The notes beneath the pieces are model-generated. The model did not search any database. It was not told the origin of the DNA and saw only the letters and a list, made by a program, of their open reading frames with translations. The translations under genes and the position numbers were made by a program. 64,000 nucleotides of DNA from Methanotrichaceae archaeon (lineage in GTDB: Archaea; Halobacteriota; Methanosarcinia; Methanotrichales; Methanotrichaceae): the NCBI GenBank assembly GCA_963754945.1, contig CAVWIG010000024.1:32001-96000 (forward strand). The letters are read 5' to 3'. Below are positions 1,435 through 32,974 of the stretch, one piece after another; the first letter of the stretch is position 1, and each line of letters starts with the position of its first letter.

Positions 1435-2487
1435 TCAATCGCATTCGCAACTTTCGTTTGAGTAAATATAATATCTGAGCGGGTTTGAAGCTGAGGTATC
1501 ATCCTGGTCCGCAGTCCTCACATGGATTTTGTCCATGAGAGCGATATCTCTGTTTCTGGTTAGTGTGATCGGATTGTCCTTGTTGTCCATTATGATGGTC
1601 ATCGCGTTCGGATCGACTAGCCTTATGGACATCTTTTCATACTGCTGGCCAGTTGTTATGGTTGTTGGTGTGTCTGATATCTGAAATATCCCATCAATAG
1701 TGGCGACGTTGCTGTGAGAACTGCTGAATACGCTCTTGAAGTGGACAGCAATGATAACTATGCCCTTTAAGTCACCCAGGTCTTTCTTGTAGTAGTAAGT
1801 CTGGTCACCCATGTTGGCATTTTCTATTGAAGGCTGAATGACCTTGTTATCGACGATTTTGCCATTCTTGCTGAGTTCCAGATAAACCTTCTTGCTATCG
1901 GAATCTATAGCCTTGATAGAGAGATTATAGCCTTCATCCAGCTCCAAGGGGCTTGACGAGTCGAATGTCTTTTCAGTATTGTCATCGTTCAAGATCTCAC
2001 TGATCAGCTCGTCAGTCATTAGGTTCCTTTTCTCGGACTTATCGTATAGGAACGGAACTGACTGGCTGGTGGCACTCAAATCCCATGTTACGTTGCTGTC
2101 ATACGCCGCAAAGTAATCCTCGCCGAGGAAACCAATCTCATCATACTGACCCCATGGCCCAAAACTAAAATCAATAGGTATTGCCTCTGTGGTATAGACT
2201 ATGCCCCTGTTGCCATTGGTATCTGGTTCATCGCTGAGAGTAGCGCTAGCCTTGTCTTGAGCTATATTAGATAGCCTGAAAGTTAGATTTTCAGTGCCAA
2301 TGTCCTCACCAATATCATAGTAGAAGCCTGGAAATGTGTAGCTATCCCAAGTGACCCTTTTCTCTCCAAGGTCATGAACATCGCTTCGGACATCAATTCC
2401 TTGTGCTTGAGATAAAATCGACATAGTGAGTAAAATAATTATTGTGTAGATGCAGATTAGAGCTATATTTCTATTTTTATCTATCAT
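1435..2487 (-). CDS. S-layer family duplication domain protein (Methanosarcinales type), single domain
   Basis: Signal peptide; motifs W...TFPGFYYDI..DIGTENL, IGFLGEDYFAAY, LELDEGYNLSIKAID, KVYLELSKNGKIVD, IDGIFQISD typical of this family. Confidence 0.85.
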   Translation of the reverse strand: MIDKNRNIALICIYTIIILLTMSILSQAQGIDVRSDVHDLGEKRVTWDSYTFPGFYYDIGEDIGTENLTFRLSNIAQDKASATLSDEPDTNGNRGIVYTTEAIPIDFSFGPWGQYDEIGFLGEDYFAAYDSNVTWDLSATSQSVPFLYDKSEKRNLMTDELISEILNDDNTEKTFDSSSPLELDEGYNLSIKAIDSDSKKVYLELSKNGKIVDNKVIQPSIENANMGDQTYYYKKDLGDLKGIVIIAVHFKSVFSSSHSNVATIDGIFQISDTPTTITTGQQYEKMSIRLVDPNAMTIIMDNKDNPITLTRNRDIALMDKIHVRTADQDDTSASNPLRYYIYSNESCECD

Positions 2488-3273: not shown

Positions 3274-4083
3274 ATGAATTACGTTAGATATCTAGTGGTA
3301 TTGATAGCCGCATTCTCTCTCATGATACCGGCATTTTCGATGCCAGACGATGGACACTCAACAGGATGCTCAGATAACCAACAAAAAACTTTTGACAACC
3401 AGAATTCCATGATGGGACCCGATGGTCAACAGCAGATTGGCCCCAAGTCCATGATGGGGAATGATGGCAAAAAAATAGTATGCCTAACCATATGCAAAGT
3501 CATAGGTCAGGATGGACAAGAGAACGCTGCCCCCAGATCCATGATGGGTGAGAACGGACAGGATGTCAAGGACAAGACTTGCGGCTGTCAGAACTCAGTG
3601 AAAGGAGATCAGGGACAAGACGGCCAGCAGAAGACATGCGGTTGCCAGGCTGGACAAGAGAACGCTGCCCCCAGATCCATGATGGGTGAGAACGGACAGG
3701 ATGTCAAGGACAAGACTTGCGGCTGTCAGAACTCAGTGAAAGGAGATCAGGGACAAGACGGCCAGCAGAAGACATGCGGTTGCCAGGCTGGACAAGAGAA
3801 CGCTGCCCCCAGATCCATGATGGGTGAGAACGGACAGGATGTCAAGGACAAGACTTGCGGCTGTCAGAACTCAGTGAAAGGAGATCAGGGACAAGACGGC
3901 CAGCAGAACTCATCGAATGACGGCCAACAGAAGACATGCAGTTGTCAGAACTCAGTGAGTGGAGATCAGGGACAAGACGGCCAGCAGAACTCATGGAATC
4001 ACGGCCAACAGAAGACAAGCCATGAGTCTATGAAGGGTCAAGACGGTCAGCAAAACTCATGGAATGATAGCCAGAACCAATGA
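3274..4083 (+). CDS. Secreted Gln/Gly/Cys-rich repeat protein with TCGCQ motifs
   Basis: Signal peptide, SD, low-complexity repeats, five TCGCQ plus one TCSCQ. Confidence 0.8.
   Translation: MNYVRYLVVLIAAFSLMIPAFSMPDDGHSTGCSDNQQKTFDNQNSMMGPDGQQQIGPKSMMGNDGKKIVCLTICKVIGQDGQENAAPRSMMGENGQDVKDKTCGCQNSVKGDQGQDGQQKTCGCQAGQENAAPRSMMGENGQDVKDKTCGCQNSVKGDQGQDGQQKTCGCQAGQENAAPRSMMGENGQDVKDKTCGCQNSVKGDQGQDGQQNSSNDGQQKTCSCQNSVSGDQGQDGQQNSWNHGQQKTSHESMKGQDGQQNSWNDSQNQ
3514..3908 (+). repeat. 138-bp (46-aa) tandem repeat, about 2.9 copies
   Basis: Units start at 3514, 3652 and 3790 and appear identical at nucleotide level. Confidence 0.95.
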
Positions 4084-4340: not shown

Positions 4341-5816
4341 ATGAAAAAAAACTATTGTCTGGCAGTGCTGATATTTCTAATAATCAGTAGCATGGCATTA
4401 ACTGCATCAGCGGACTCAACAAAAAATACAGCTCCAATGAATTATCCTTCAGAGGCGAATTCACGAGGATATGAAGCGAATCAAGGAACATCAGATCAAC
4501 TGCAAACTACTTTGACTCTTTTTGTCCTGGATGGGGGCGTAAATGGCCCGGTGCTTCCTGGAGCGACGGTCACTGCATATGATGCGTCTGGTAGCAGTTT
4601 TAATGGAATAACCGACTCAAAAGGATCCGTTAGCATCAGCGGAAAACCAGGAAACTGGCGATTTACAATTTCAAAAGAGGGCTATGAAACCGTTAACTCG
4701 AATTACGACGTCACCGAAACGCATACAGCTGCGACTTATCTAAAGAAAAATCCACTGCCTCAAGAAACGGTCGCTCTGACAATCTATGTTCACGACGGGA
4801 ACCTCACGGGACCTCAACTCCCTGGTGTACATGTCTCCGGCCAGGACGCATCAGGTAACGGCTTTAACCAGCTAACCAACGCGGATGGATCTGTAGTAAT
4901 TAATGGACAGCCTGGAACCTGGCAGTTTATGTTCGCGAAGGACGGCTACAACCCGGTTAGCCTGAATTACAGTGTGACTGCGACCCAAACAACTGCAGCT
5001 TATCTCCAGAGGAATCCACAGACTCAAGAAACAGTTGCACTAACAATCTATGTTCATGACGGGAACCTAACAGGACCTCAGCTTCCTGGTGTACAGGTCA
5101 CCGGTCAAGACGCTTCGGGTAATGGCTTTAGCCAGCTGACCAACGCGGATGGATCTGTAGTAATTAATGGACAGCCTGGAACCTGGCAGCTAACGTTCTC
5201 GAAGGATGGATATAAACCGGTCAGCCTGAATTTTAGTATGGCAGGGACGCAAACAACTGCGGCTTATCTCCAGAGAATTGCACAGACTCAAGAAACGGTT
5301 GCGCTAACAATCTATGTTCACGACGGGAACCTGACCGGACCCCAGCTTCCTGGTGTACAGGTCACCGGCCAGGACTTTTCGGGCAATGGCTTCAACCAGC
5401 TGACGAATTCGGATGGATCTGCGACCATCAACGGACAGCCTGGAACCTGGCAGTTCATGTTCTCGAAGGATGGCTATAAACCGGTTAGCCTGAATTACAA
5501 TGTGACAGCGACCCAAGCAACTGCAGCTTATCTCCAGAAAAATCCACAGACTCAAGAACAGGTTGCTCTGACCATTTATGTTCACGACGGGAACCTAACA
5601 GGACCTCAGCTTCCCGGTGTCCAGGTCTCCGGCCAAGACGCATCCGGTAATGGCTTTAGCCAGCTGACCAACGCGGATGGATCTGTGATCATCAACGGAC
5701 AGCCTGGAACCTGGCAGTTCACATTCTCGAAGGATGGCTACAACCCTGTTAGCCTGAATTACAATGTGACAGCGACTCAAGCAACTGCAGCTTATCTCCA
5801 GAGTATTACAGCCTAA
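4341..5816 (+). CDS. Secreted protein of five about 88-aa beta-sandwich repeats (carboxypeptidase-regulatory/PEGA-like)
   Basis: Signal peptide; repeats LTIYVHDG..GPQLPGV.V...TNADGSV.ING.PGTW.F.FSKDGY; 264-bp periodicity. Confidence 0.8.
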   Translation: MKKNYCLAVLIFLIISSMALTASADSTKNTAPMNYPSEANSRGYEANQGTSDQLQTTLTLFVLDGGVNGPVLPGATVTAYDASGSSFNGITDSKGSVSISGKPGNWRFTISKEGYETVNSNYDVTETHTAATYLKKNPLPQETVALTIYVHDGNLTGPQLPGVHVSGQDASGNGFNQLTNADGSVVINGQPGTWQFMFAKDGYNPVSLNYSVTATQTTAAYLQRNPQTQETVALTIYVHDGNLTGPQLPGVQVTGQDASGNGFSQLTNADGSVVINGQPGTWQLTFSKDGYKPVSLNFSMAGTQTTAAYLQRIAQTQETVALTIYVHDGNLTGPQLPGVQVTGQDFSGNGFNQLTNSDGSATINGQPGTWQFMFSKDGYKPVSLNYNVTATQATAAYLQKNPQTQEQVALTIYVHDGNLTGPQLPGVQVSGQDASGNGFSQLTNADGSVIINGQPGTWQFTFSKDGYNPVSLNYNVTATQATAAYLQSITA

Positions 5817-6180
5817 AAACCTATTTTATTTTTTTGATATTCTCGAATTTTCAACATATTACTGTCATCTTTGGTGATGAATGTGTCATCCATATATGCC
5901 ATTCACGACTCTCGGTGTATATTTTTGATGTTGTACATCCACTTTTCTGACCATTCCGACTTCAGAAGCTTATCCTTTCTCAGATTAATGCCTGAGGGAT
6001 GCTTGCGAAAATTCTCAATCTAACCGCTTAAACAGAACCGAATAGCTACCAGGAGTTGTTAATAAGTAAAATAACGTAAATTAAGGCAAATAGCTAAAAA
6101 CAGAACTGTTTTATTAGTTTAAATTAAAAATCGAACATTATTAAACAATTATTAGCACTTCTAAAAAACAAGTTTAATAG

Positions 6181-6212
6181 TTCGTTCGGTCCAGGTTATA
6201 AATATCGTTCAA
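6181..6212 (+). promoter_or_regulatory. Shared promoter motif copy C; TATA TTATAAAT at 6196-6203 implies a near-leaderless NRPS mRNA
   Basis: TTCGTTCGG-N11-AATATCGTTCAA; ATG at 6228 lies about 24 nt after the TATA box. Confidence 0.65.
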
Positions 6213-6227
6213 TTGGGTTCATATATA

Positions 6228-9200
6228 ATGTTTGAAAAGAGGGCTCAGAGTTTATCGATTCCAAACACTCAAGTAAAGCCTGCCATGTTGCAGCAGTTGT
6301 TCGAAAGAACAGCCGATACAATGCCAGATCGCATCGCAGTCATCTGTGAAGGAAAGGAATACACCTACTTAGAACTGGAACACTACGCAAACCGCATTGC
6401 TCATTACTTGAGCGAAAGAGGTGTTAAGTTTGGGAACCGTGTTGGTATCCTGTTGAAGCGCTCGATCGAGACTTATGCCGCGATAATCGCTGTTCTGAAA
6501 CTCGGCGCTGCGTATGTTCCACTTGATACAAGCTTTCCCAGTGACCGCATTCGTTTTATTGCTGAGGATGCTGAGTTTAGCATGCTGATTTCGACCGAAT
6601 CGATCTCAGCCCGAAAGGCTGCGAACAAAAGCCCTCAGGTGCTTTTGGATCGTGAAAAGGCAGTAATTGCATCGCAACCTGGTAGTCGTCCCGAGATTGC
6701 CCTTTCCGGCCAGCCCGAAAGGGAGCTTTGCTACATTATTTACACTTCTGGCTCCACTGGCAGGCCGAAGGGTGTAGAGGTCGAGCATCGAAGTGTAGTC
6801 AATTTGATCAACGTCGTGACCGAGATCTACGGTATCAAGCCTGAAGACCGTGTTTTTCAAGGAATCACTATTGCTTTTGACTTTTCGGTCGAAGAGATCT
6901 GGATGGCATTCAATGCAGGCGCGACACTAATTGCTGGTCCAGCAGAAAAGGGGAGCTGCGTCGGCAACGAACTCGCCCGTTTTCTCATCGAGCAGCGTGT
7001 GACCGTTCTAGGCGCCGTGCCGACCATGCTTTCGTCGATCGATAAAGACATCCCAAGCCTCAGGCTGATTGAAGTCGGCGGTGAGCCGTGCCCTCAGAAC
7101 TTGGTTGACCGCTGGGCAAAGCCAGGACGACGCTTCCTCAACACTTACGGCCCAACTGAAACTACTATCACAGCGACCTGGGCAGAGCTGGAACCGGGAA
7201 AGCCTGTAACGATTGGACGACCGTTGCCGAGCTATAAGGTGCTTATCGCTGACGAAGCAGGTCGGAGAGTGCCCAATGGCGAGATCGGCGAGATCTATAT
7301 CGGAGGAGTGGGTGTCGCCCGAGGGTATGTCAAACGACCCGATATAACCGCCGAGCGCTTCATACCGGATCCAGACGCAGAACCAGGATATGCAAGGCTC
7401 TATCGGACCGGCGACCTTGGACGCTACACAGAGGCCGGTGAGATCGAATATCATGGGAGGGCAGATCTACAGGTAAAGCTGCGCGGCTACCGCATTGAGT
7501 TATCGGAGATCGAATCGGTAATCTTGAAGTCCGACGACGTTCAGGCGGCTGCAGTGGCAGTGATGCCATCTCCTGATGGAATCGAGGAGCTTGTCGCCTA
7601 CGTAACTCCAAAACTCGGCCACAACGTCGATCCTGCGAAGCTCCATGATCTGCTTCACTACTACATGCCACCCTACATGGTACCGGCTTATATAGAGTTG
7701 ATCAATGCACTCCCCGTCCTTCCCAGCGGCAAGATCGACCGCAAGGCCCTGCCCAAGCCTGGTTTGACCCGCCTGGGTTCTAACAAGCCATTCGTCGCTA
7801 CCAGAGGAGAGGTTGAAACCCATATCTCTGAAGTCTGGAGCAATGTCCTGAGGCTGCCGCAGATTTCAGCGACCGACGACTTCTTCCGTGACCTCGGCGG
7901 TCACTCGCTTTTCGCAGCCTTTGTGGTCTCGAAGCTGAGGGAGAATCCGGCGTTCGTGCATTTGAGCATGGCCGATTTCTATGCTAACCCGACTGTGCAG
8001 AAGCTCGCAAGGCTAGGTACTGCTGCTGAAGACCCCAATGGAATCTCGATTGTCGAACAGCCTAAAAAAACTACGTTCAAAGCACGTGCGTCGAAGAGGC
8101 TCGTAGCCGCTCAATCCTTATCTCTGTACTTGATGTTTGGCATTCCTGGCCTGATGATGATCCTCTGGCTGTATCTGTCTCAGAGGCTGACCGGAGGCGA
8201 TACCCTACTGAACTACGTGTTTATTGGGCTGCTTTTGTACTTGCTCTATATTCCCGCCTCAGTTGCTGTCGCAGTCGTCGCGAAACGGTTGCTGATAGGC
8301 CGGTTTAAACCAGGCGTGCATCCGCTGTGGGGTGATGCTTATCTGCGCTGGTGGCTGGTAAACCTAGCACAAAGGTTCGTGCCGGTGTCCATGTTTGTGG
8401 GCACTCCACTGATGGTCTGGTATTGCCGCCTGATGGGCGCAAGGATCGGCAAGGATTGCTACATCGGCACTGGTCTCGTTTCCTGCCATGACTTGATCTG
8501 CCTAGGCGATGGCACCAGCGTCGGCAACGGTAGCTACTTGTTGGGTTACTCCGTAACGTCTGGCAGCATCGAGTTCGGCACAATCGACATCGGTAGCGAC
8601 TGTTACATAGGAGCCAACAGCGTGCTCGGCATCAACACCATAATGGGCGATGGCGCAATGCTTCTCGAACAATCTCAGCTTGCCCATGGAAGCATGCTGT
8701 CGCCCAGCTATGTCGCTAACGGTTCACCAGCACGTTCTCGACCAATCGATCAGGCTCCCCCGTTCGTTGTGCCCGTAACGCAAGGCAGGCAACGTGTGTC
8801 GGAACGGATGTTGATTGCGGGATTCCTGGTTTCAGGCATGTTATTTCTGCCGCTTGTGCCGCTCTTGGCTGGGATACCCGGAGTTCTATTCGATTGGTGG
8901 CTGATCACGAACTATCCGGGAAATGTCTGGACCTGGGTCGTCGGCCTGATTTTAGCTGGCGCCATGTTCGTCTCATCCCTATGCATACTCGTTACTGGTT
9001 GCAAGCGGCTAATACTGCCAGATGTCAAGCCGGGCGGATACCCGTTGCAATCCACTTTCTACCTGCGCAAGTGGACGGTCGACGCGCTCGTGGGATTGAC
9101 CCTGATGCTCAATAATGCGCAGTATGGGACGCTTTACATAGCCCCCTTCTTGCGTATGCTCGGAGCTAAGATTGGTGTGCGCGGCGAAATCTCGACAGTT

Positions 9201-10316
9201 TCCAATATCACTCCTGAGCTGCTCACAATCAAAGACGAGGCCTTCGTCGCTGATCTGGCTTCGATAGGGCCAGCTCGAGTGTACCGAAAGACACTGATGG
9301 TCGCGCCCATTACCATAGGCGTCCGCACTTTCATCGGCAACTCTTCGGTGGTGCCGGTCGGTGGAAATGTTCCCGATGGTTGCCTTATAGGGGTACAGTC
9401 GACTCCACCCCAAGCCACGATTTATCCCGGCAGTTCCTGGCTGGGCCTGCCTCCGATGTACCTCCCTCGCCGGCAAGTTGTCGAGGGCTACACCGAAGAG
9501 CAGACATTCAACCCACATCTGGGCGCCTATGCGTTGCGCTACGGCTACGAATTCTTCCGAATCACGCTTCCGCCGGCCTTCGCGTTTGGCATTTTATGGG
9601 CTCTATACTTCTTGTCGCAAGCAAGTCTCGCCACACTGGGGTTAGGTTTTTCCCTACCACTGCTGCCGTTGTTCTACCTGGCTCCAGCGTTCGCGACAAT
9701 ACTCGCAGTCGCCGCACTAAAGTGGATATTGATTGGTCGCTACCTGCCGCGCTTCGAGCCATTGTGGAGCCACTTTGTACGCCGCACTGAACTCATCACC
9801 GGGCTCTATGAAAATGTCACTGTGCCACTCCTTCTGGGATTCTTGACCGGCACTCCGCTCATCCGGCCGATGTTGCGTTTGTTGGGTGTAAAGCTCGGTC
9901 GTAATGTTCTCCTCCTGACCACTTTCATGAGCGAGTTCGACCTTACCGAAGTTGGGGACAACAGTGCCATTAACCCTGGGGTCTCACTGCAGACTCATCT
10001 GTTTGAAGATCGTGTGATGAAGATGTCATACGTCCGAGTCGGCCCCGATTGTACGATCGGTGAACGCAGCGTGGTGCTCTACGATAGCGAGATGAAGGCA
10101 GGTGCGCGCCTGGGGAACCTTTCGTTGCTGATGAAGGGTGAGGTGCTTGCCAAAGGCAGCGAATGGGAAGGTTCGCCAGCGCAGCCGGTGCTACGAGTTG
10201 AAGCCATATTGTCTCCGCAGGCCAAATCTAAGAGACATATGGTAGTTCAGCCAAAGCAGAGTCTAAAGCATTCGGGATCATTGTCAAGAAACCCGAGCCT
10301 CGGGAAGAGTGTGTAA
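6228..10316 (+). CDS. Pls/PosA-type membrane-bound single-module NRPS (A-T-C-terminal repeat/TM region); homopoly(amino acid) synthetase
   Basis: A-domain cores YIIYTSGSTGRPKG, NTYGPTE, YRTGDL, GRADLQVKLRGYRIEL, PSGKIDR; carrier motif DFFRDLGGHSL (Ser codon 7905-7907); three hexapeptide-like repeats (LMGARIG, MLGAKIG, LLGVKLG) each preceded by TM pairs; QTHLFEDRVMK C-terminal motif; no canonical C or TE domain. Confidence 0.9.
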   Translation: MFEKRAQSLSIPNTQVKPAMLQQLFERTADTMPDRIAVICEGKEYTYLELEHYANRIAHYLSERGVKFGNRVGILLKRSIETYAAIIAVLKLGAAYVPLDTSFPSDRIRFIAEDAEFSMLISTESISARKAANKSPQVLLDREKAVIASQPGSRPEIALSGQPERELCYIIYTSGSTGRPKGVEVEHRSVVNLINVVTEIYGIKPEDRVFQGITIAFDFSVEEIWMAFNAGATLIAGPAEKGSCVGNELARFLIEQRVTVLGAVPTMLSSIDKDIPSLRLIEVGGEPCPQNLVDRWAKPGRRFLNTYGPTETTITATWAELEPGKPVTIGRPLPSYKVLIADEAGRRVPNGEIGEIYIGGVGVARGYVKRPDITAERFIPDPDAEPGYARLYRTGDLGRYTEAGEIEYHGRADLQVKLRGYRIELSEIESVILKSDDVQAAAVAVMPSPDGIEELVAYVTPKLGHNVDPAKLHDLLHYYMPPYMVPAYIELINALPVLPSGKIDRKALPKPGLTRLGSNKPFVATRGEVETHISEVWSNVLRLPQISATDDFFRDLGGHSLFAAFVVSKLRENPAFVHLSMADFYANPTVQKLARLGTAAEDPNGISIVEQPKKTTFKARASKRLVAAQSLSLYLMFGIPGLMMILWLYLSQRLTGGDTLLNYVFIGLLLYLLYIPASVAVAVVAKRLLIGRFKPGVHPLWGDAYLRWWLVNLAQRFVPVSMFVGTPLMVWYCRLMGARIGKDCYIGTGLVSCHDLICLGDGTSVGNGSYLLGYSVTSGSIEFGTIDIGSDCYIGANSVLGINTIMGDGAMLLEQSQLAHGSMLSPSYVANGSPARSRPIDQAPPFVVPVTQGRQRVSERMLIAGFLVSGMLFLPLVPLLAGIPGVLFDWWLITNYPGNVWTWVVGLILAGAMFVSSLCILVTGCKRLILPDVKPGGYPLQSTFYLRKWTVDALVGLTLMLNNAQYGTLYIAPFLRMLGAKIGVRGEISTVSNITPELLTIKDEAFVADLASIGPARVYRKTLMVAPITIGVRTFIGNSSVVPVGGNVPDGCLIGVQSTPPQATIYPGSSWLGLPPMYLPRRQVVEGYTEEQTFNPHLGAYALRYGYEFFRITLPPAFAFGILWALYFLSQASLATLGLGFSLPLLPLFYLAPAFATILAVAALKWILIGRYLPRFEPLWSHFVRRTELITGLYENVTVPLLLGFLTGTPLIRPMLRLLGVKLGRNVLLLTTFMSEFDLTEVGDNSAINPGVSLQTHLFEDRVMKMSYVRVGPDCTIGERSVVLYDSEMKAGARLGNLSLLMKGEVLAKGSEWEGSPAQPVLRVEAILSPQAKSKRHMVVQPKQSLKHSGSLSRNPSLGKSV

Positions 10317-11028
10317 CAATATGCGCCCGTCTCTGTTCGAGCTGTGGCGGGCATGCGGCGTTTTCCCGCCAGGACACGGAGAGTGCCTTAAACCCGGGCA
10401 GGTTCTTGTACATGCACTGCCGCTAGACTGTGGCTCGATGAAAGCAGTCTGGCCCTTTCTTTCCCATGACGAGCAAGCTAGAGCTGCAAGCTATGGTCGA
10501 GAGCTAGACGGTCTGCGTTTCGCAATCTCTAGAACTCTATTGCGTGGGGTGTTGGGGCTCTATACCGGAATTAATCCCCACAATCTAGTATTTCTCTATG
10601 GACCTCACGGACGGCCCCGGCTGGCTCTCGACCAGGCCAATGACTTGGATTTCAATTTAGCGCGAAGAGATGATTGCTGCGTGATTGCGTTGGGTTTAGG
10701 CCGGCGCGTCGGCATAGATCTTGAATCTCGTTGTCTTTCCAAATTGGTTGAAGCTACGGTAATGATGTCTGCGGGAGAAGATCGGTTCGCACTAGAAGAA
10801 GCTCGGGGGGATGAACGCAGCATGCGTCTGATCGAAGAATGGACGACGCTAGAAGCTAGAGCAAAGGCAATTGGAACCGGGCTATGCGACATGGTTACGC
10901 ATAACGCCGCATTGACATGCCGGAAATTCGAGCTAGGCAAAGAGTGGATCGGTTGTATCGCTTCAGAAGGTCATAATTGGCATTTCAAGCTTATTTTAGA
11001 AACGAACTTGACGACCAATAGCATATAG
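10309..11028 (+). CDS. Sfp-type 4'-phosphopantetheinyl transferase
   Basis: LS.DE..RA, YGPHGRP, LDFNL, VGIDLE, W...EA..KA.G.G motifs; overlaps the NRPS stop. Confidence 0.85.
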   Translation: MCNNMRPSLFELWRACGVFPPGHGECLKPGQVLVHALPLDCGSMKAVWPFLSHDEQARAASYGRELDGLRFAISRTLLRGVLGLYTGINPHNLVFLYGPHGRPRLALDQANDLDFNLARRDDCCVIALGLGRRVGIDLESRCLSKLVEATVMMSAGEDRFALEEARGDERSMRLIEEWTTLEARAKAIGTGLCDMVTHNAALTCRKFELGKEWIGCIASEGHNWHFKLILETNLTTNSI

Positions 11029-11209
11029 GCCGTTAAGGCTCTTTGTAGCCAGGACTTCCAGCCAAATTGCGACGATAAGATCGTCGATAACTTCCTTATA
11101 CATATATCACAGAATAATATAACAGAAATGCCATTTTTTTTCGCAAAATCTTAAATAGCATAGATCCTAATAGAATTGAGAATGCATAAGCGAGAAGGAG
11201 AGATGATTA

Positions 11210-11764
11210 GTGCATCGTATAATGTATTTTATATTGATTGGGTCATTAGCAATATTTGGCCTAGCAACAACCGCAATGGCCGCGGATCAGCTAATAAAAA
11301 CAGATCTCTCCAACTCAGATGGAATTTTGAAGTTAAGCGACAGCACAGCGAATAACGCTATTAACAAGTTTCCTTTCTTTGTCCTCGATTGTTACGTCCC
11401 ATGGTGTGAACCATGCAAGACTATGAGCACTGCACTTTATGAACTGGCCGGTGAGCTGAGGGGCCAAGTGACTTTTGGACTGATCGATATCGAAAATAAT
11501 TCGGTGACAGCGAGAAGGTACAATATCACGTCTTACCCAACGCTTCTGATTTTCAAGAACGGAATGCTAGTAGATAACCAAGCAGGATACGGTTCGAAGT
11601 CGGAACTCGTAGATTTACTTCAAATGGATGATCCAGGGTTGAATACCGGCAGTGCTGCGCTTGCGGCTCCACATCAGCCGCCGACTACCCCATTGAGCTC
11701 AAACTACTCACAAATGACAACACTTGATCCAATTAGGGATCTAACGACATACAAAATGCCTTAA
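11210..11764 (+). CDS. Secreted thioredoxin-domain protein (WCEPC)
   Basis: Signal peptide ending AMA; PWCEPC and cis-Pro YPTL motifs. Confidence 0.85.
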   Translation: MHRIMYFILIGSLAIFGLATTAMAADQLIKTDLSNSDGILKLSDSTANNAINKFPFFVLDCYVPWCEPCKTMSTALYELAGELRGQVTFGLIDIENNSVTARRYNITSYPTLLIFKNGMLVDNQAGYGSKSELVDLLQMDDPGLNTGSAALAAPHQPPTTPLSSNYSQMTTLDPIRDLTTYKMP

Positions 11765-11841
11765 CGATCATGAGTAGAAGGAATTGTGCCAGATTTCACC
11801 CGAACCACAAAAAAGGATTTCTGGTTGCATCAGAATCTTAA

Positions 11842-12255
11842 TCAATTGTGCTTCGCGAAAGATTTGACTGCATTAAGTGCATTGGTTGTATTTTTATTAG
11901 TCGCGTTTATGCTTGCGGGTATGATCGTGTTCGTGATTTCGGTTAGATTCTGAATTAATACGATGTTCAATGTAACATTCTGAAGCATGATCATTTCCAT
12001 GGACCCATTGGCCATCTTACTAGGCATATTCATCGGCATCGTCATGTTCATCGGCATCGTCATGTTCATCGGCATCGTCATGTTCATCGGCGTTGTCATG
12101 TTCATCGGCGTTGTCATGTTCATCGGCGTTGTCATGTTCATCGGCGTTGTCATGTTCTTCGCCATGCTACCTTTCTCTGTCAAGGCCACTCCTCCAAAAG
12201 AGAGTATCAATAGTATTGATAGTAGTGCCAATCCAGCCAATACGGAGCTTCTCAT
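11842..12255 (-). CDS. Secreted Met-rich repeat protein with NMT(T/M)PM hexapeptide repeats
   Basis: Signal peptide; SD-like GGAAGGA upstream; seven NMT repeats. Confidence 0.75.
   Translation of the reverse strand: MRSSVLAGLALLSILLILSFGGVALTEKGSMAKNMTTPMNMTTPMNMTTPMNMTTPMNMTMPMNMTMPMNMTMPMNMPSKMANGSMEMIMLQNVTLNIVLIQNLTEITNTIIPASINATNKNTTNALNAVKSFAKHN
12025..12157 (-). repeat. 18-bp tandem repeat, about 7 copies
   Basis: CATGTTCATCGGC(GTT/ATC)GT units on the + strand. Confidence 0.95.
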
Positions 12256-12683
12256 TTGTATCCTTCCTTACTTTCCCACGTTAATTAGTTTATACGGATT
12301 TAAATCTTCCTGAGGACGAACTTGTTGGCCATAACTCGTCCTCATCTTGCCAAGCTCTTCTCCCTCCAGCTCTTTCCTCAAGCCTCTTCCTGATCATGTC
12401 AGGCCTCCAAGGTTGTCTTGCTCTTTTATCCCAGTCTTCGATCGATCAAATTCATGATTGGGTATAGGGCTCTATGGATCATTTCGGTACTTGTGCAAAA
12501 TTTTGTCTGATCAATTCCTGTATGGGTTGAAGAATCGTCTATGAAGGTGCTGCCGATAGAACGGAATACACTACTTGTTCTTTCTCTATCGGCCAGCTAA
12601 TTCAAATAGCGGAACCTATGGAAGATCTTGTGTTGTAATCCTAGTCCAAAAGACTCCTACATCCGATCAAAGCGTGCGCATTA

Positions 12684-13292
12684 CTACTGCTTTACTGCGG
12701 TGACATTTCCTTTGCCTAAGGACTGTCCGCCTGAACTCAAGACATAAGTTCCCGACAGAGTATTGTTTTTCATAAGCAGGTCGAGATCGTACACATCATA
12801 TTTTTGATTGGCGTATTCGGGTGTGGCCGACTTAGCGGTCAATGTTAGCTCCTGCGCGGTTAAAGATCCGCTGGCAGTCACAGAGTTCTTAGCACCGTCT
12901 TCTGTTAGGGTGCCATAACCCATAATTCTGTTCCCGCCGGACGGCCATAGGTTCAAGTCAAGTGACCTGTCTGTGCCGTCATTAAACTTTATCGACCATT
13001 TGCCGCTCACGTTCATTGGTTGGACCCCCTGTTGTATTTGAGTCACTTGCGTCTGATTAGAACTCGTATTGCTGGTTTGGTTGAGTTCCTGTTTAGGATT
13101 GATGTTTGGCTCGACTATCGTCTTGGGGGTTGTCACTGGCACCTCCATGCTTGGCGCTGAGATGTGAGGCTCTGGCACGCTCATGTCCGGGACGGGCATA
13201 CTCGGCACTGCGATGTCACCAACATCGGCGTGAGCCTGAATTGATAAACATGAAAGTAATATAGCTGATAACAGTATGCTTGCCAATCTCAT
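12684..13292 (-). CDS. Secreted protein with Pro-rich linker and C-terminal beta-rich domain
   Basis: Signal peptide ending AHA; GGTGGAGG SD; NVSGKW...LSGTY pattern. Confidence 0.75.
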   Translation of the reverse strand: MRLASILLSAILLSCLSIQAHADVGDIAVPSMPVPDMSVPEPHISAPSMEVPVTTPKTIVEPNINPKQELNQTSNTSSNQTQVTQIQQGVQPMNVSGKWSIKFNDGTDRSLDLNLWPSGGNRIMGYGTLTEDGAKNSVTASGSLTAQELTLTAKSATPEYANQKYDVYDLDLLMKNNTLSGTYVLSSGGQSLGKGNVTAVKQ

Positions 13293-13514
13293 TCAACTAA
13301 CCTCCACCTTGATATGGTTGCACGCAACAACTTTAAAGGTTATCCCATGCATGGAGTTCACGCCAACTCTCTTAAACCCCTGGATGTGTGGATAGCAATC
13401 TCGCAGAGGAAGAGGTTTCTCCGCTACAGCTCTCCTCCAACGGCCTCCTCTGTATCATGTTCTCTACATCGGGAGGCTGTTTTAGGTATCATCCAGTACA
13501 GCCCTGTACACCAC

Positions 13515-14519
13515 CTAATCCTTGATCCCTGGCGTGGTCACCGAGAAAACCGCCTCGCCATCCGGTAGATTGGGAGAATCCACAAGTCGAGCGATGCGCT
13601 TCTCGCCCTTGGACTTGCGCAGGTACAGCCTGAAGGTTGCCGTGTGACCCAGCACATGCCCGCCCACGGGTTTTGTTGGATCGCCGAAGAAGGTGTCCGG
13701 CTTGGACATGACCTGATTGGTGACCATTATCAGGGCGTTGTTCAGATCTCCAAAGCGCATCAGAGCGTGGAGGTGTTTGTTAAGTTTCTGCTGCCGATCC
13801 GCCAGGGTTCCGCGGCCAACGTACTCAGCCCGGAAGTGAGCAGTGACCGAATCCACAATGAGCAAGCGGACTGGCTTGTCTGAGTCCTTCAGCTTCTCGG
13901 CTAGGTCCAGGGCGCTTTCGGCCAGGAGCATCTGGTGATTGGAGTTGTATGCCCTGGCCACGTGAATGTGCTTCAAAAACTCCTCCGGTTCCCAGGTACG
14001 GTCTTCGGATGCTGGAAGGCCGCCCACCATCTGGGTGATCCTCTCAGGCCGGAAGGTGTTCTCGGTGTCTATGATTATTGCCGAACCGTCGAGGCCGCCC
14101 ATCTCCTGAGGGAGCTGGACGTTGACGGCTATCTGGTGGGCCACCTGTGTCTTTCCCGAGCCAAACTCGCCGTAGAGCTCGACTATGGACTGGGTCTCCA
14201 TGCCGCCGCCCAGAAGATCGTCCAGGCTCTTGCTGCTGGTTGTCAACTTCCCAACATGCTTTCTTCGCTCCAGAACTATGTCTCCGGTCTCGAAGCCTCC
14301 GATGTCGGCGGCCTCGCGGGCGGCGGCTATGATCTTGGAGGCAGTAGTCTCGCCAACGTCCGCGCACGCGCCTAGTTCTCCGGGCGACGCGACAGCAATG
14401 GCCTCGATGGAGTTGAACCCGGCCTCTCTAAGCTTCTCGGCCGTGGCAGGACCAACTCCAGGCAGATCCTCTAGAAGTTTTATTGGCATTATGATTTCCT
14501 CTATACTATTTTGGGCCAC
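13515..14519 (-). CDS. radA: DNA repair and recombination protein RadA
   Basis: N-terminal Hh[10 protein letters not shown], Walker [32 protein letters not shown]. Confidence 0.97.
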
Positions 14520-14532
14520 TTACTTAACTGAG

Positions 14533-15648
14533 TTACTCAGGCGGGGCGAAAGTGATTTTGGTACTCCAACCGCAACTGATCTCGAGCTCTTCATTCCATC
14601 CGCTCTTGACCTGGCAGTCCACAATATCGGCCCGAAAGCCAATATCCAGCCCCTCCAAAAGCTGTGCATGATCTCCCCACAGAACAGCTTTCACCCGGCC
14701 GGTGGCATCGGAGACGTAGATGTTGGCCACCTTGCCCGGAGTGCCGTCGGCCTTCTGAAACTCCCTCACCTCGCCTAGACCGGAAACGAATCCGGAGACT
14801 GTGCAGATCATTCCCGGCTCAAGGTCGGCTATCGGCGTTATCTTCTCGCTATAGTTGATCGTAGCATTGCTCTTTTTCACTACGGTGTAGCCGCCGGTCT
14901 GGATCTCCACCTGGCCGTACCTCTCCCGAGAGGATCCGTTTATGATCTCCAGGGCATCGCCCGGGGCAATCTCCAAGCTGGCCTGGTCGTTCCACAGGTT
15001 GAGCCTGATCTTCCCAGTCTCATCGCCCAGAAGAACGGTCCTGACTAGCCCCTTCGATCCATCTTTACGCGCGAACTCCCTGACAACTCCTGGATCCAGT
15101 ACACGAGCGACCAGATTCACCTCGCCCATGTCTCTATTGATCTCCGAGATTTTGTAGGGCGCGAGCCTTGGCTTTATGTCCGCGTCCACCTCTTCGACGC
15201 CCCCGTTGCGGCCTATGGACACCTCCGTCCCAGCAAAGCCCTCCTTGGCCAGGCCCCGCACCTTCAGGCACTGGTCCACCCTTATGTCTCCGGACTTCAC
15301 CAGATCGGTTGCCTCATCCCACAGGGCTGCTCGAATGGTGCCCGTCTCGTCACCAAGTGTCAGGTTCACAACCCGTCCAGGCGAGCCATCCGACCTCTGA
15401 AACTCCTTGATCTCGGATATGGATATGATTTTTCCCGTAAAGGTGACTGTTCCAGTTTCCGGCTTGATCCTTCCGATCTTGAATTGGACCTCGCTTGCCC
15501 CAAGCTCCCGGGCCACCAGCATGGCCGCAGTACGCCTGTCGCAGAGGCCACCCATAAGGGAAACCTTCTCCGCTATTCTGGTCTCGAACTCCTCGGGGGT
15601 GATCTGGTCAGAAAGCTGCTGGTAGATCTCTGTCAGCTCATCATCCAT
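14533..15648 (-). CDS. rpa: Replication protein A-like ssDNA-binding protein with three OB folds
   Basis: Three repeats of EF...DG..G.V.....D.TG.....LW; adjacent to radA. Confidence 0.88.
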   Translation of the reverse strand: MDDELTEIYQQLSDQITPEEFETRIAEKVSLMGGLCDRRTAAMLVARELGASEVQFKIGRIKPETGTVTFTGKIISISEIKEFQRSDGSPGRVVNLTLGDETGTIRAALWDEATDLVKSGDIRVDQCLKVRGLAKEGFAGTEVSIGRNGGVEEVDADIKPRLAPYKISEINRDMGEVNLVARVLDPGVVREFARKDGSKGLVRTVLLGDETGKIRLNLWNDQASLEIAPGDALEIINGSSRERYGQVEIQTGGYTVVKKSNATINYSEKITPIADLEPGMICTVSGFVSGLGEVREFQKADGTPGKVANIYVSDATGRVKAVLWGDHAQLLEGLDIGFRADIVDCQVKSGWNEELEISCGWSTKITFAPPE

Positions 15649-31933: not shown

Positions 31934-32974
31934 ATGGACAACATTCTAGAAGCAAGGAACGTTCGATACTCTTACTCGGATGGTCCGGAGGCGCTGAGAG
32001 GATTGAGCACTGCGATAGAAGAAGGCAAAAAGATCGCTCTTGTTGGCCCCAACGGAGCAGGAAAATCCACCCTCATGCTCATGTTCAATGGCATTCTCAG
32101 GCCTACGTCCGGGGAGGTGTACTTCAGGGACCAGCCCATGAAGTACGACTCTCCTTCTTTGAGGAATGTGCGGCGTAAGGTGGGTTTGGTCTTCCAGAAC
32201 CCAGACGACCAGCTCTTCGCTCCCACAGTCTACCAGGATGTGGCTTTCGGGCCGGTCAACCTGGGATATCCCAAGGACAAAGTCGAGAAGTATGTAAACT
32301 ACGCCTTGAGCTACGTCGGCCTTTCCGGCTTCGAGAGCCGACCACCCCATCATTTGAGCGGCGGTGAGAAGAAGCGGGTAGCAATAGCCGGTGTCCTGGC
32401 CATGGAGCCTGAGGTGATGATCCTTGACGAGCCGACATCCAACCTTGACCCAGCAGGCTCCGAGGAGATCATGGAGATGCTGGACGAGCTGAACAGCAGC
32501 GGGAAGACGATGATAATCTCCACCCATGACGTTGAGCTGGCCTATCGCTGGTCGGACCAGATCCTGCTAATGGAAGACGGCAAACTCCTCCACTACGGCC
32601 CGCCAGCAGAGGTCTTTGCCGATCATGAGTTAGTGAGCAAAGCTCGCATGAAGCCGCCCGCCGTGATGGAGATCTACCAGGAGCTTAGAGGGAGAGGGGT
32701 CTTGGATGGTGACCGACCGCCCAGGAATATCCTTGAGCTTACAAACCTTTTGGAGACAAGGGCCACAGTAGGCTGTCCAAAAGTCAGCCCAGGCAAGATC
32801 TATCTGTACAACGTAGACCGTGCCGACCCTGGGGAGATAAGATCCTTCCTTGATTCAGGATCTGCCAAATATGTTGGCGCTATGGGTACCAGCGCCAAGA
32901 TGATGGCGGAGAGAGAGTTGATCCGTCTGGACTTCACCTTCGGGGTTATAGACAAGAGAGTTTCGAAAAACTAA
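31934..32974 (+). CDS. cbiO: CbiO ATPase, C-terminally truncated by an IS5 insertion
   Basis: GPNGAGKS, FQNPDDQLF, LSGGEKKR, DEPT intact; last residues RVSKN come from the IS. Confidence 0.93.
   Translation: MDNILEARNVRYSYSDGPEALRGLSTAIEEGKKIALVGPNGAGKSTLMLMFNGILRPTSGEVYFRDQPMKYDSPSLRNVRRKVGLVFQNPDDQLFAPTVYQDVAFGPVNLGYPKDKVEKYVNYALSYVGLSGFESRPPHHLSGGEKKRVAIAGVLAMEPEVMILDEPTSNLDPAGSEEIMEMLDELNSSGKTMIISTHDVELAYRWSDQILLMEDGKLLHYGPPAEVFADHELVSKARMKPPAVMEIYQELRGRGVLDGDRPPRNILELTNLLETRATVGCPKVSPGKIYLYNVDRADPGEIRSFLDSGSAKYVGAMGTSAKMMAERELIRLDFTFGVIDKRVSKN

Follow-up and report, generated by a model that had tools for sequence, protein, structure and literature searches.

What is a nonribosomal peptide synthetase (NRPS), a kind of enzyme whose chemistry is rare in archaea, doing in a methanogen, does it still work there, and what would it make? 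These questions are raised by a stretch of 64,000 nucleotides (nt) from a Methanotrichaceae archaeon (positions 32,001 to 96,000 of contig CAVWIG010000024.1, assembly GCA_963754945.1; G000:C24:32001-96000 in our numbering), hereafter the window, in which a large gene, called pls here, is immediately followed by one for a phosphopantetheinyl transferase (PPTase). A first-pass annotation had read the pair as a Pls-type poly(amino acid) synthetase with an adjoining PPTase in an archaeal methanogen, and the family, the architecture, the adjacency and the setting are all confirmed by Pfam, NCBIfam and the neighbouring genes. The two genes quite probably form an operon encoding a Pls/PosA-family homopoly(amino acid) synthetase and then its own Sfp-type PPTase. 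The synthetase is apparently functional, bacterial in origin and subsequently domesticated in a narrow Methanotrichaceae clade, which makes the pair a compact, testable case: can a bacterial membrane polymerase operate in an archaeal ether-lipid membrane?

A Pls/PosA-type synthetase and its companion transferase

The pls gene (6228..10316, + strand; open reading frame (ORF) calling, Pfam, NCBIfam) encodes 1362 aa from its ATG, although an alternative in-frame TTG at 6213 would add five residues (1367 aa); residues are numbered here on the ATG form (database record P0003), and the Pfam and NCBIfam domain bounds come from the TTG-form translation. The intact ORF of about 1360 aa, with adenylation (A) domain cores and a GGHS carrier, that had been claimed is thus found as described. 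Pfam recognizes AMP-binding at residues 30-372 (276 bits), AMP-binding_C at 432-507 and PP-binding at 538-600, plus Hexapep, and the amino acid adenylation model TIGR01733 reaches 430.7 bits (cut-off 317.4). The A1-A10-like motifs and DDFFRDLGGHSL are legible in the translation, the labels following what we take to be the consensus of these motifs. Neither a Condensation nor a Thioesterase domain is detected by Pfam at E <= 0.01, in line with the claim that both were missing. Instead, the full length of the protein is covered by the A domain (AMP-binding plus AMP-binding_C, 6300..7733, +; Pfam, TIGR01733), the carrier (T) domain (7824..8012, +; Pfam PF00550, 30.7 bits) and TIGR02353, the NCBIfam model for the Pls/PosA family of NRPSs, which matches residues 633-1323 over positions 2-695 of its 695 with 551.2 bits against a cut-off of 423.1 (553.9 bits in a six-frame search of the genome), as the proposed check by profile searches had anticipated. 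The predicted phosphopantetheine-attachment serine of the GGHS motif is S560 (nt 7905-7907), a residue that all 194 family sequences compared retain.

The C-terminal polymerisation domain (8109..10181, +; TIGR02353, hydropathy, repeat alignment and an AlphaFold2 (AF2) model) is the part that sets this family apart, and the three repeats of a transmembrane (TM) pair and a hexapeptide-like unit claimed for it are borne out by hydropathy, repeat alignment and modelling alike. Hydropathy places the TM pairs at residues ~630-690, 862-926 and 1112-1170 (nt 8115-8297, 8811-9005 and 9561-9737, +), within three units that can be aligned with each other, and the AF2 model together with the repeat alignment places three left-handed beta-helix (LbH) units at ~nt 8496-8744, 9222-9464 and 9945-10169 (+). 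The model of residues 601-1341, built from a 75-sequence alignment, has a mean pLDDT of 92.8 and a pTM of 0.92, and runs three times through the same order of a helical hairpin, short helices and a beta-helix. The predicted structure therefore has the layout by which the family is recognized, with three tandem, LbH-like soluble units (C1-C3) set apart by six TM helices that form three pairs, and it agrees with the PosA C-terminal domain as modelled in section 13 of PMC10522769. When the model was compared with the PDB by Foldseek, the matches were single LbH acyltransferases covering one unit each (serine acetyltransferase, maltose/galactoside acetyltransferase, streptogramin acetyltransferase, LpxA/LpxD and GlmU), with query TM-scores <= 0.15, and no match to the full domain was found. 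Similarly, a PDB sequence search returned matches to the A and T domains only, and a literature search found no solved or cryo-EM structure of a Pls/PosA polymerisation domain. Taken together, the gene is confirmed, as far as sequence can tell, by every testable criterion of the Pls/PosA, or cationic homopoly(amino acid) (CHPA) synthetase, family.

The second gene starts at a GTG at 10309 or an ATG at 10321 and ends at 11028 (+; ORF, Pfam, NCBIfam and alignment). The stop codon of pls lies at 10314-10316, and the two genes had been described as overlapping: they do abut, but the overlap hinges on the start chosen, since the GTG gives one of 8 nt and the ATG lies 4 nt past the stop; the database form (P0123, 235 aa) begins at the ATG. 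The two genes are presumably co-transcribed. As for the identity of the product, which resembles Sfp and HetI, the GxDxE motif, the Glu-x3-Lys of the W..E motif and a two-lobed length of ~230 aa are all present, and an alignment of 16 sequences, some of them bacterial, shows no variation at G131, D133, E135, W174, T175, E178, A179 and K182, of which the acidic residues we take to have metal-binding and catalytic roles. Furthermore, the orthologous proteins of other Methanotrichaceae carry precomputed PF01648 or PF22624 matches, all of which points to a divergent Sfp-type PPTase. Signals at both ends of the pair can also be proposed. The TATA-box-like element TTATAAATAT (6196..6205, +; read from the sequence, 23-32 nt 5' of the pls ATG), labelled on an archaeal consensus that we assume to hold here, sits within an AT-rich intergenic stretch (5817-6227) and is a possible archaeal promoter that would give a leaderless or short-leader pls mRNA, and a run of eight T (11134..11141, +; read from the sequence), ~105 nt 3' of the PPTase stop, may be an archaeal oligo-T terminator.

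The association of the two genes goes beyond this locus. In the genome, G000 (2.97 Mb in 54 contigs, estimated to be 87.7% complete and 3.2% contaminated), the sole PP-binding match is the carrier domain of pls and the sole ACPS-like match is the gene adjacent to it (19.9 bits, below the cut-off). Using a profile built from the PPTase alignment, a PPTase was found to adjoin pls in 8 of 8 archaeal loci (the window, L003, L004, L007, L008, L020, L089 and L011). Among the 53 bacterial loci flanked by 1.5 kb or more on each side, 5 have a PPTase within 500 nt of pls and 8 have one anywhere in the flanks; no statistic is attached to this comparison, because the eight archaeal loci represent two independent lineages. 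That both archaeal acquisitions have a PPTase beside pls, compared with about one in ten bacterial loci, bears on what such a gene must bring along to function across domains.

Is the pair under constraint, and is it used? The protein has the consensus residue at all 95 of the columns that are at least 97% conserved among the 194 full-length sequences, counted from residue 530 onward, and the polar clusters E987, S989, D1009 and N1038 in unit 2 and E1236, D1238, Q1255, H1257, E1260, D1261, R1262 and K1265 in unit 3 are fully kept. The ratio of nonsynonymous to synonymous substitution (dN/dS, Nei-Gojobori) of pls is 0.15 against L007 and 0.135 against L008, and the pair is, to judge from these alignments, maintained by purifying selection. 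Regarding expression, contigs from peat metatranscriptomes (three runs from three studies) match pls at ~90-98% identity. The RNA-library pieces listed, of 160-804 nt, map within 6267-10578, and the intergenic stretch 6004-6254, where the DNA run X1 has depth, holds none of them; gaps in the RNA-contig cover (e.g., 10773-11023 in X17 and X19), and the small word shares of runs X2-X16, were given no weight.

Based on the characterized relatives, a mechanism can be proposed. The PPTase would convert Ser560 of the carrier into its holo form, an assignment suggested by the adjacency of the genes and by theirs being the sole carrier/PPTase pair found in the genome. The A domain, whose presence and pocket are observed, would then adenylate an amino acid, probably a cationic diamino acid, and load it as a thioester. 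Finally, the membrane-embedded, pseudo-trimeric beta-helix domain would move the aminoacyl group onto the side-chain amine of a free monomer or of the growing chain, so that an isopeptide-linked cationic homopolymer would leave the cell, as is the case by analogy with Pls, PosA and the synthetases of poly(diaminopropionic acid) (PDAP) and poly(diaminobutyric acid) (PDAB).

The specificity pocket and the candidate monomers

Which diamino acid would that be? The ten code positions were mapped through HMMER alignments onto the A domains of PosA (PDB 8g95/8g97) and Pls (7wew), with the PosA chain numbering taken as native +2, which reproduces the published residues D217, M218, E221, H260, N280, T304, V312 and S313, and the codes were compared over 202 sequences. 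The code of pls is DFEGEGTITK (D218, F219, E222, G262, E282, G284, T306, I314, T315 and K502), where the same alignment gives DMEHNGTVSK for PosA and DAESIGTVVK for Pls. D218 and E222 align with D217 and E221 of PosA and with the Asp and Glu of Pls, as expected for diamino acid binding mode 1. Mutation of either of these two residues, Asp1 or Glu3, abolishes PosA activity (PMC10522769, Table 1), and Glu3 is described as the experimentally validated anchor of the side-chain amine in the family (PMC10522769, sections 6 and 9; PMC12042044, section 14) and as the hallmark of the CHPA binding mode, for substrates from 2,3-diaminopropionate (Dap) through Lys (PMC12042044, section 14). Asp1 and Glu3 of the pls pocket thus indicate, at the level of the alignment, a diamino acid substrate. 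Its length is addressed by position 2, which according to PMC10522769 is Phe in PDAP and PDAB synthetases, Met in PosA and Ala in Pls: by this rule the Phe2 of pls leads to the expectation of a short diamino acid, and lysine is not favoured, since the Ala of Pls is not there. The gene lacks the Lys-type pocket (DAESIGTV-type, with Ala2) of a strict-sense epsilon-poly-L-lysine synthetase and, going by its pocket, should not be classed as one. The cationic homopolyamide that had been claimed as the product thus remains the expected kind of product, given the enzyme class and the diamino acid pocket, but its lysine version is disfavoured. As for the monomer, Dap or 2,4-diaminobutyrate (Dab) would come first, at somewhat less than an even chance, followed well behind by ornithine (Orn), then, slightly below it, by something else altogether, with Lys as the least likely.

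The remaining positions are peculiar to this clade. Among the 202 sequences, Gly4 together with Glu5 (Asp in some, Lys in P0013) is confined to the crown of the Methanotrichaceae clade, and its basal members have DFECNGTVTK or DFEVNGTVTK, which resemble the codes of some bacteria. This leads to a bolder idea, which we consider tentative and on the unlikely side: a small peat and freshwater clade of Methanotrichaceae might make a new cationic isopeptide polymer, with a new monomer or linkage set by the pocket DFEG(E/D)GTITK and its second acidic residue, and with a role in the envelope, sheath or aggregate (adhesion, charge control or partner contact) rather than in antibiosis. If so, archaea would have their first homopoly(amino acid) made by an NRPS, and the pls-PPTase cassette would be a minimal self-sufficient unit able to enter a domain without carrier-protein machinery. 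The unusual code marks a candidate new polymer in a class whose members serve as preservatives and cell-penetrating carriers, and the locus raises the question of what a polycation would do in an acetoclastic methanogen family that is important for methane production in peat and freshwater.

The supply of the monomer was also considered. In G000, with its completeness of 87.7%, no match above cut-off was found to SbnA, EctB or AblA as sources of Dap, Dab or beta-Lys, and ArgD is the top class-III aminotransferase; primary metabolism would provide Orn and Lys. None of the Methanotrichaceae loci has a supply gene linked to pls. With the ArgD-like aminotransferase and the CysK-like fragments of G000 itself as phmmer queries, a class-III aminotransferase was found in the flanks of 4 of 81 pls loci (L040, L053, L075 and L084), directly adjoining pls solely in Kitasatospora (L084) and, by position, in Embleya (L075), and no PALP-type neighbour was found in the 81. 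An attempt to tell Dap-type from Dab-type pockets by such neighbours was dropped, four of 81 loci being too sparse for calibration.

Origin, host and rival readings

How did such a gene reach a methanogen? Presence being scored as a TIGR02353 match above cut-off, pls occurs in 3 of 41 genomes of a sample of relatives and, in the survey of archaea that had been proposed, in 4 of the family's 105 species genomes (from genus g1, G000 and G002; from genus g4, G019 and G041) and in 1 of 401 genomes of a phylum-wide sample, which is G000 itself; none of the 59 genomes of the largest genus, g2, has it. Neither pls nor the PPTase has a match in G001, a 99%-complete congener whose flank on the radA side is 92-94% identical (G001:C126:1-1382 versus 12096-13470 of the window), its contig C126 stopping at ~12096, the edge of a variable surface-protein region. 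The pair is, then, a presence/absence polymorphism within the genus. The closest named records to the protein are those of Methanothrix sp. fen_7 (90% identity) and of two Methanotrichaceae metagenome-assembled genomes (MAGs; 76-77%). In the databases, 13 clusters are 63-100% identical to the C-terminal domain, the next best being at most 47% identical and bacterial (e.g., Sulfuriferula plumbiphila). The phylogeny asked for at the outset gives a similar picture, since the Methanotrichaceae proteins form one clade within the family (support 100) whose sister, with support 100 in both trees, is a small clade that includes the S. plumbiphila protein (FastTree, 194 rows; IQ-TREE quick, LG+G4, 52 rows; both unrooted). 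The direction from bacteria to archaea is suggested by the make-up of the family, in which bacteria predominate overwhelmingly (76 of 80 loci kept), and the pair would have passed from bacteria into the ancestor of the two Methanotrichaceae genera early enough for its composition to turn native.

This was not the only such event. A copy from an uncultured Methanosarcinaceae MAG (L011) lies in a different, well-supported clade beside sequences of Sericytochromatia, Bacteroidota and Bacillus, from which it follows that archaea gained pls at least twice. That copy (9851-13972, +) is 44% identical to the pls of the window, has the Lys-type code DAESIGTVIK and is followed, after ~190 nt, by a canonical Sfp-type PPTase gene (14162-14887, +; ACPS, 68 bits). 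Weaker relatives of the polymerisation domain occur as well. In three Methanotrichaceae genomes that lack pls, a protein of ~220 aa that combines two TM helices with one hexapeptide beta-helix is encoded on its own (L090:1492-2157, -; L005 in G006; L091 in G055; TIGR02353 at ~80 bits), and that of L090 is ~30% identical to each Pls unit, including a His aligned with H1257; going by the alignment, such a protein could be a homotrimeric, free-standing counterpart of the polymerisation domain. As a separate observation, a cysteine-synthase-like (PALP) gene of G000 (C17:111327-112215, -; L092/L093), adjoining a hexapeptide (CysE-like) gene that is a weak second TIGR02353 match, appears to be split, with an in-frame TAG, into frames of 154 and 182 aa and may reflect a pseudogene, read-through or an error in the sequence.

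Several observations weigh against a working, polymer-making pair. The PPTase scores below all family cut-offs (HetI 71.1 against 370, AASDHPPT_N PF22624 25.5 against 27, ACPS PF01648 18.2 against 25), the Methanotrichaceae enzymes have FNLARR and WTxLEA where bacterial ones have FNxSHS and WTxKEA and lack ~30 residues that the bacterial ones have, and the dN/dS of the PPTase is 0.42, looser than that of pls. The pair must be dispensable, as it is missing from the 99%-complete G001, and the RNA contigs are a mere hint of expression, given that they are sequences of relatives and that RNA libraries can contain DNA. Moreover, the Phe2 pocket, of Dap/Dab type by alignment, conflicts with the gene content of G000, and positions 4 and 5 are unlike those of the characterized members compared, so that the chain-length rule may not transfer.

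Could the same fold, then, serve a different chemistry? The aminoacyl group might be placed on a lipid head group, on an S-layer or sheath glycan, or on a protein at the membrane, a cationic decoration with an effect like that of D-alanylation or lysyl-lipid formation. This would suit the LbH acyltransferase units, given that the relatives of known structure act on sugars, serine and antibiotics, a pocket code unlike that of the characterized polymerases, the secreted and surface proteins in the neighbourhood (S-layer in L008 and L020, CarboxypepD_reg repeats, a thioredoxin-domain protein) and the location of the stand-alone homologues in other Methanotrichaceae next to a family-2 glycosyltransferase gene (in L090, which also has a TldD-like gene at its side). 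Nevertheless, a surface-gene neighbourhood is by itself weak evidence, every characterized TIGR02353 member cited in PMC10522769 yields a homopolymer, and the carrier and polymerisation columns are all conserved, with a score far above the equivalog-domain cut-off, which makes decoration unlikely. The low PPTase scores, its altered motifs, the patchy spread and the limited support for expression could be those of an acquired relic, silent or decaying, whose genes are intact and have no function in the archaeal host, for instance through an inactive PPTase or a failure to insert into ether-lipid membranes. We regard this as quite improbable, since full-length ORFs, 76-90% identical to the window protein, are intact in four species belonging to two genera, pls evolves at a dN/dS of ~0.14 with the conserved residues all in place and native codon usage, even the PPTase stays at 0.42, and contigs matching pls appear in three RNA libraries.

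An artefact of assembly or binning, in which a bacterial fragment was fused to an archaeal contig, would explain why the closest non-archaeal relatives are bacterial, and it deserves consideration because the G002 assembly is fragmented around the locus and the GC content climbs from ~41-44% in the flanks to 54-56% in pls. That step is accounted for by the flanks, which are AT-rich and encode repetitive secreted proteins; radA and its neighbours have 53-58% GC, similar to pls. Among 945 long ORFs, the 53.9% of pls ranks at the 63rd percentile and its GC3 at the 47th; among the 254 ORFs with 500 aa or more, its codon-usage distance from the genome ranks at the 16.5th. Its composition is native to the host genome. 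The same pair in the same order is present in six other loci (L003 from G002, L004 from G019, L007, L008, L020 and L089 from G041), on a contig of 2.22 Mb in L008 (to whose protein that of P0010 is identical in the tree, the longest contig of the P0010 cluster being 3.26 Mb), on a 162-kb Methanotrichaceae contig in L020 and, in the 7-contig assembly G019, at 1.87 Mb on contig 1, and orthologous S-layer or thioredoxin genes stand beside it in related assemblies. Chimerism at the borders had been named as a danger, and a 1593-nt contig of the DNA run X1 bridges the 3' side, spanning 9945-11541 and joining pls, the PPTase and the thioredoxin gene; at the 5' border no contig among those listed bridges 6028-6272, so that this border rests on assembly and comparative evidence. 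All in all, a fusion artefact is extremely unlikely, and a domesticated pls-PPTase operon is the reading we retain.

The genes around the pair complete the picture. The archaeal neighbours named by the first-pass annotation hold up, namely an S-layer-domain protein (1435..2487, -; Pfam PF07752, 244 bits), whose orthologue lies directly 5' of pls in L008 and L020 (tblastn, 72-73% identity), and RadA/Rad51 (13515..14519, -; Pfam, 280 bits), in addition to an OB-fold RPA-like protein. A thioredoxin-domain protein with a hydrophobic N-terminus (11210..11764, +; Pfam PF00085, 70.7 bits) follows the PPTase and is kept there in L003 and L007 (tblastn, 81-84% identity). The operon is also surrounded by repetitive proteins with signal-peptide-like N-termini (3274-4083, +; 4341-5816, +; 11842-12255, -; 12684-13292, -), one of them rich in Gln, Gly and Asp with CGCQ repeats, one with at least four CarboxypepD_reg/PEGA-like repeats and a small one with (P)MNMT(T/M) tandem repeats, and such AT-rich genes for repetitive surface proteins are the points at which related assemblies break.

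Comparison with known systems

How does this synthetase relate to those already studied? PosA, the delta-poly-L-ornithine synthetase of Acinetobacter baumannii (PDB 8g95-8g98, A domain), shares the TIGR02353 architecture (A-T, six TM helices and three LbH units) and gives the highest-scoring PDB match across the pocket (125 bits). Compared over the A domain, Asp1, Glu3, Gly6, Thr7 and Lys10 are common to both, and Met2, His4 and Asn5 of PosA are replaced by Phe, Gly and Glu. Unlike the archaeal gene, posA forms a single-gene operon in a bacterium, and section 6 of PMC10522769 reports no adjoining PPTase. The founding member, the epsilon-poly-L-lysine synthetase Pls of Streptomyces (PDB 7wew, A domain), has the same domain order and is the second-best match over the pocket (106 bits), but its Ala2 fits the long side chain of Lys, where the window protein has Phe2; it is the Methanosarcinaceae copy, in contrast, that does resemble Pls. 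The PDAP and PDAB synthetases of actinomycetes have Phe2 in common with the window protein, a likeness drawn from position 2 only (PMC10522769). Many bacterial homologues with DFE-type codes are its wider kin, although in our set their position 4 is Tyr or Cys, not Gly, and their position 5 is Leu, Ile or Asn, not Glu. The PDAP synthetase cluster reportedly carries genes for Dap supply, which were found neither around pls in the window nor in G000. Closest among bacteria are the Sulfuriferula-type homologues of the sister clade (P0016-P0021), with 46% identity over the C-terminal domain and the DFE-type code DFECNGTASK.

Archaeal members, finally, were listed before: it had been supposed that no characterized archaeal example existed, and our full-text literature searches turned up no work on a family member from archaea, but archaeal homologues were already listed by Patel & Gulick 2023 (PMC10522769), with their substrate given there as unknown. 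According to section 10 of that paper, these sequences, together with those of Rhizobia and Methylobacterium, have the code DLEDIGTV(T/V/I)K and belong to group 4, which also holds the PDAP/PDAB types. Since that code is found in none of the 202 sequences compared, the Methanotrichaceae clade is probably not the archaeal lineage described there. The pls of the window is therefore a further member of a known enzyme family with archaeal homologues in print, and not a new kind of system, to which it adds a clade-specific pocket, a PPTase invariably paired with pls in the two archaeal lineages, a genome in which no other carrier machinery was found and a hint of expression in situ.

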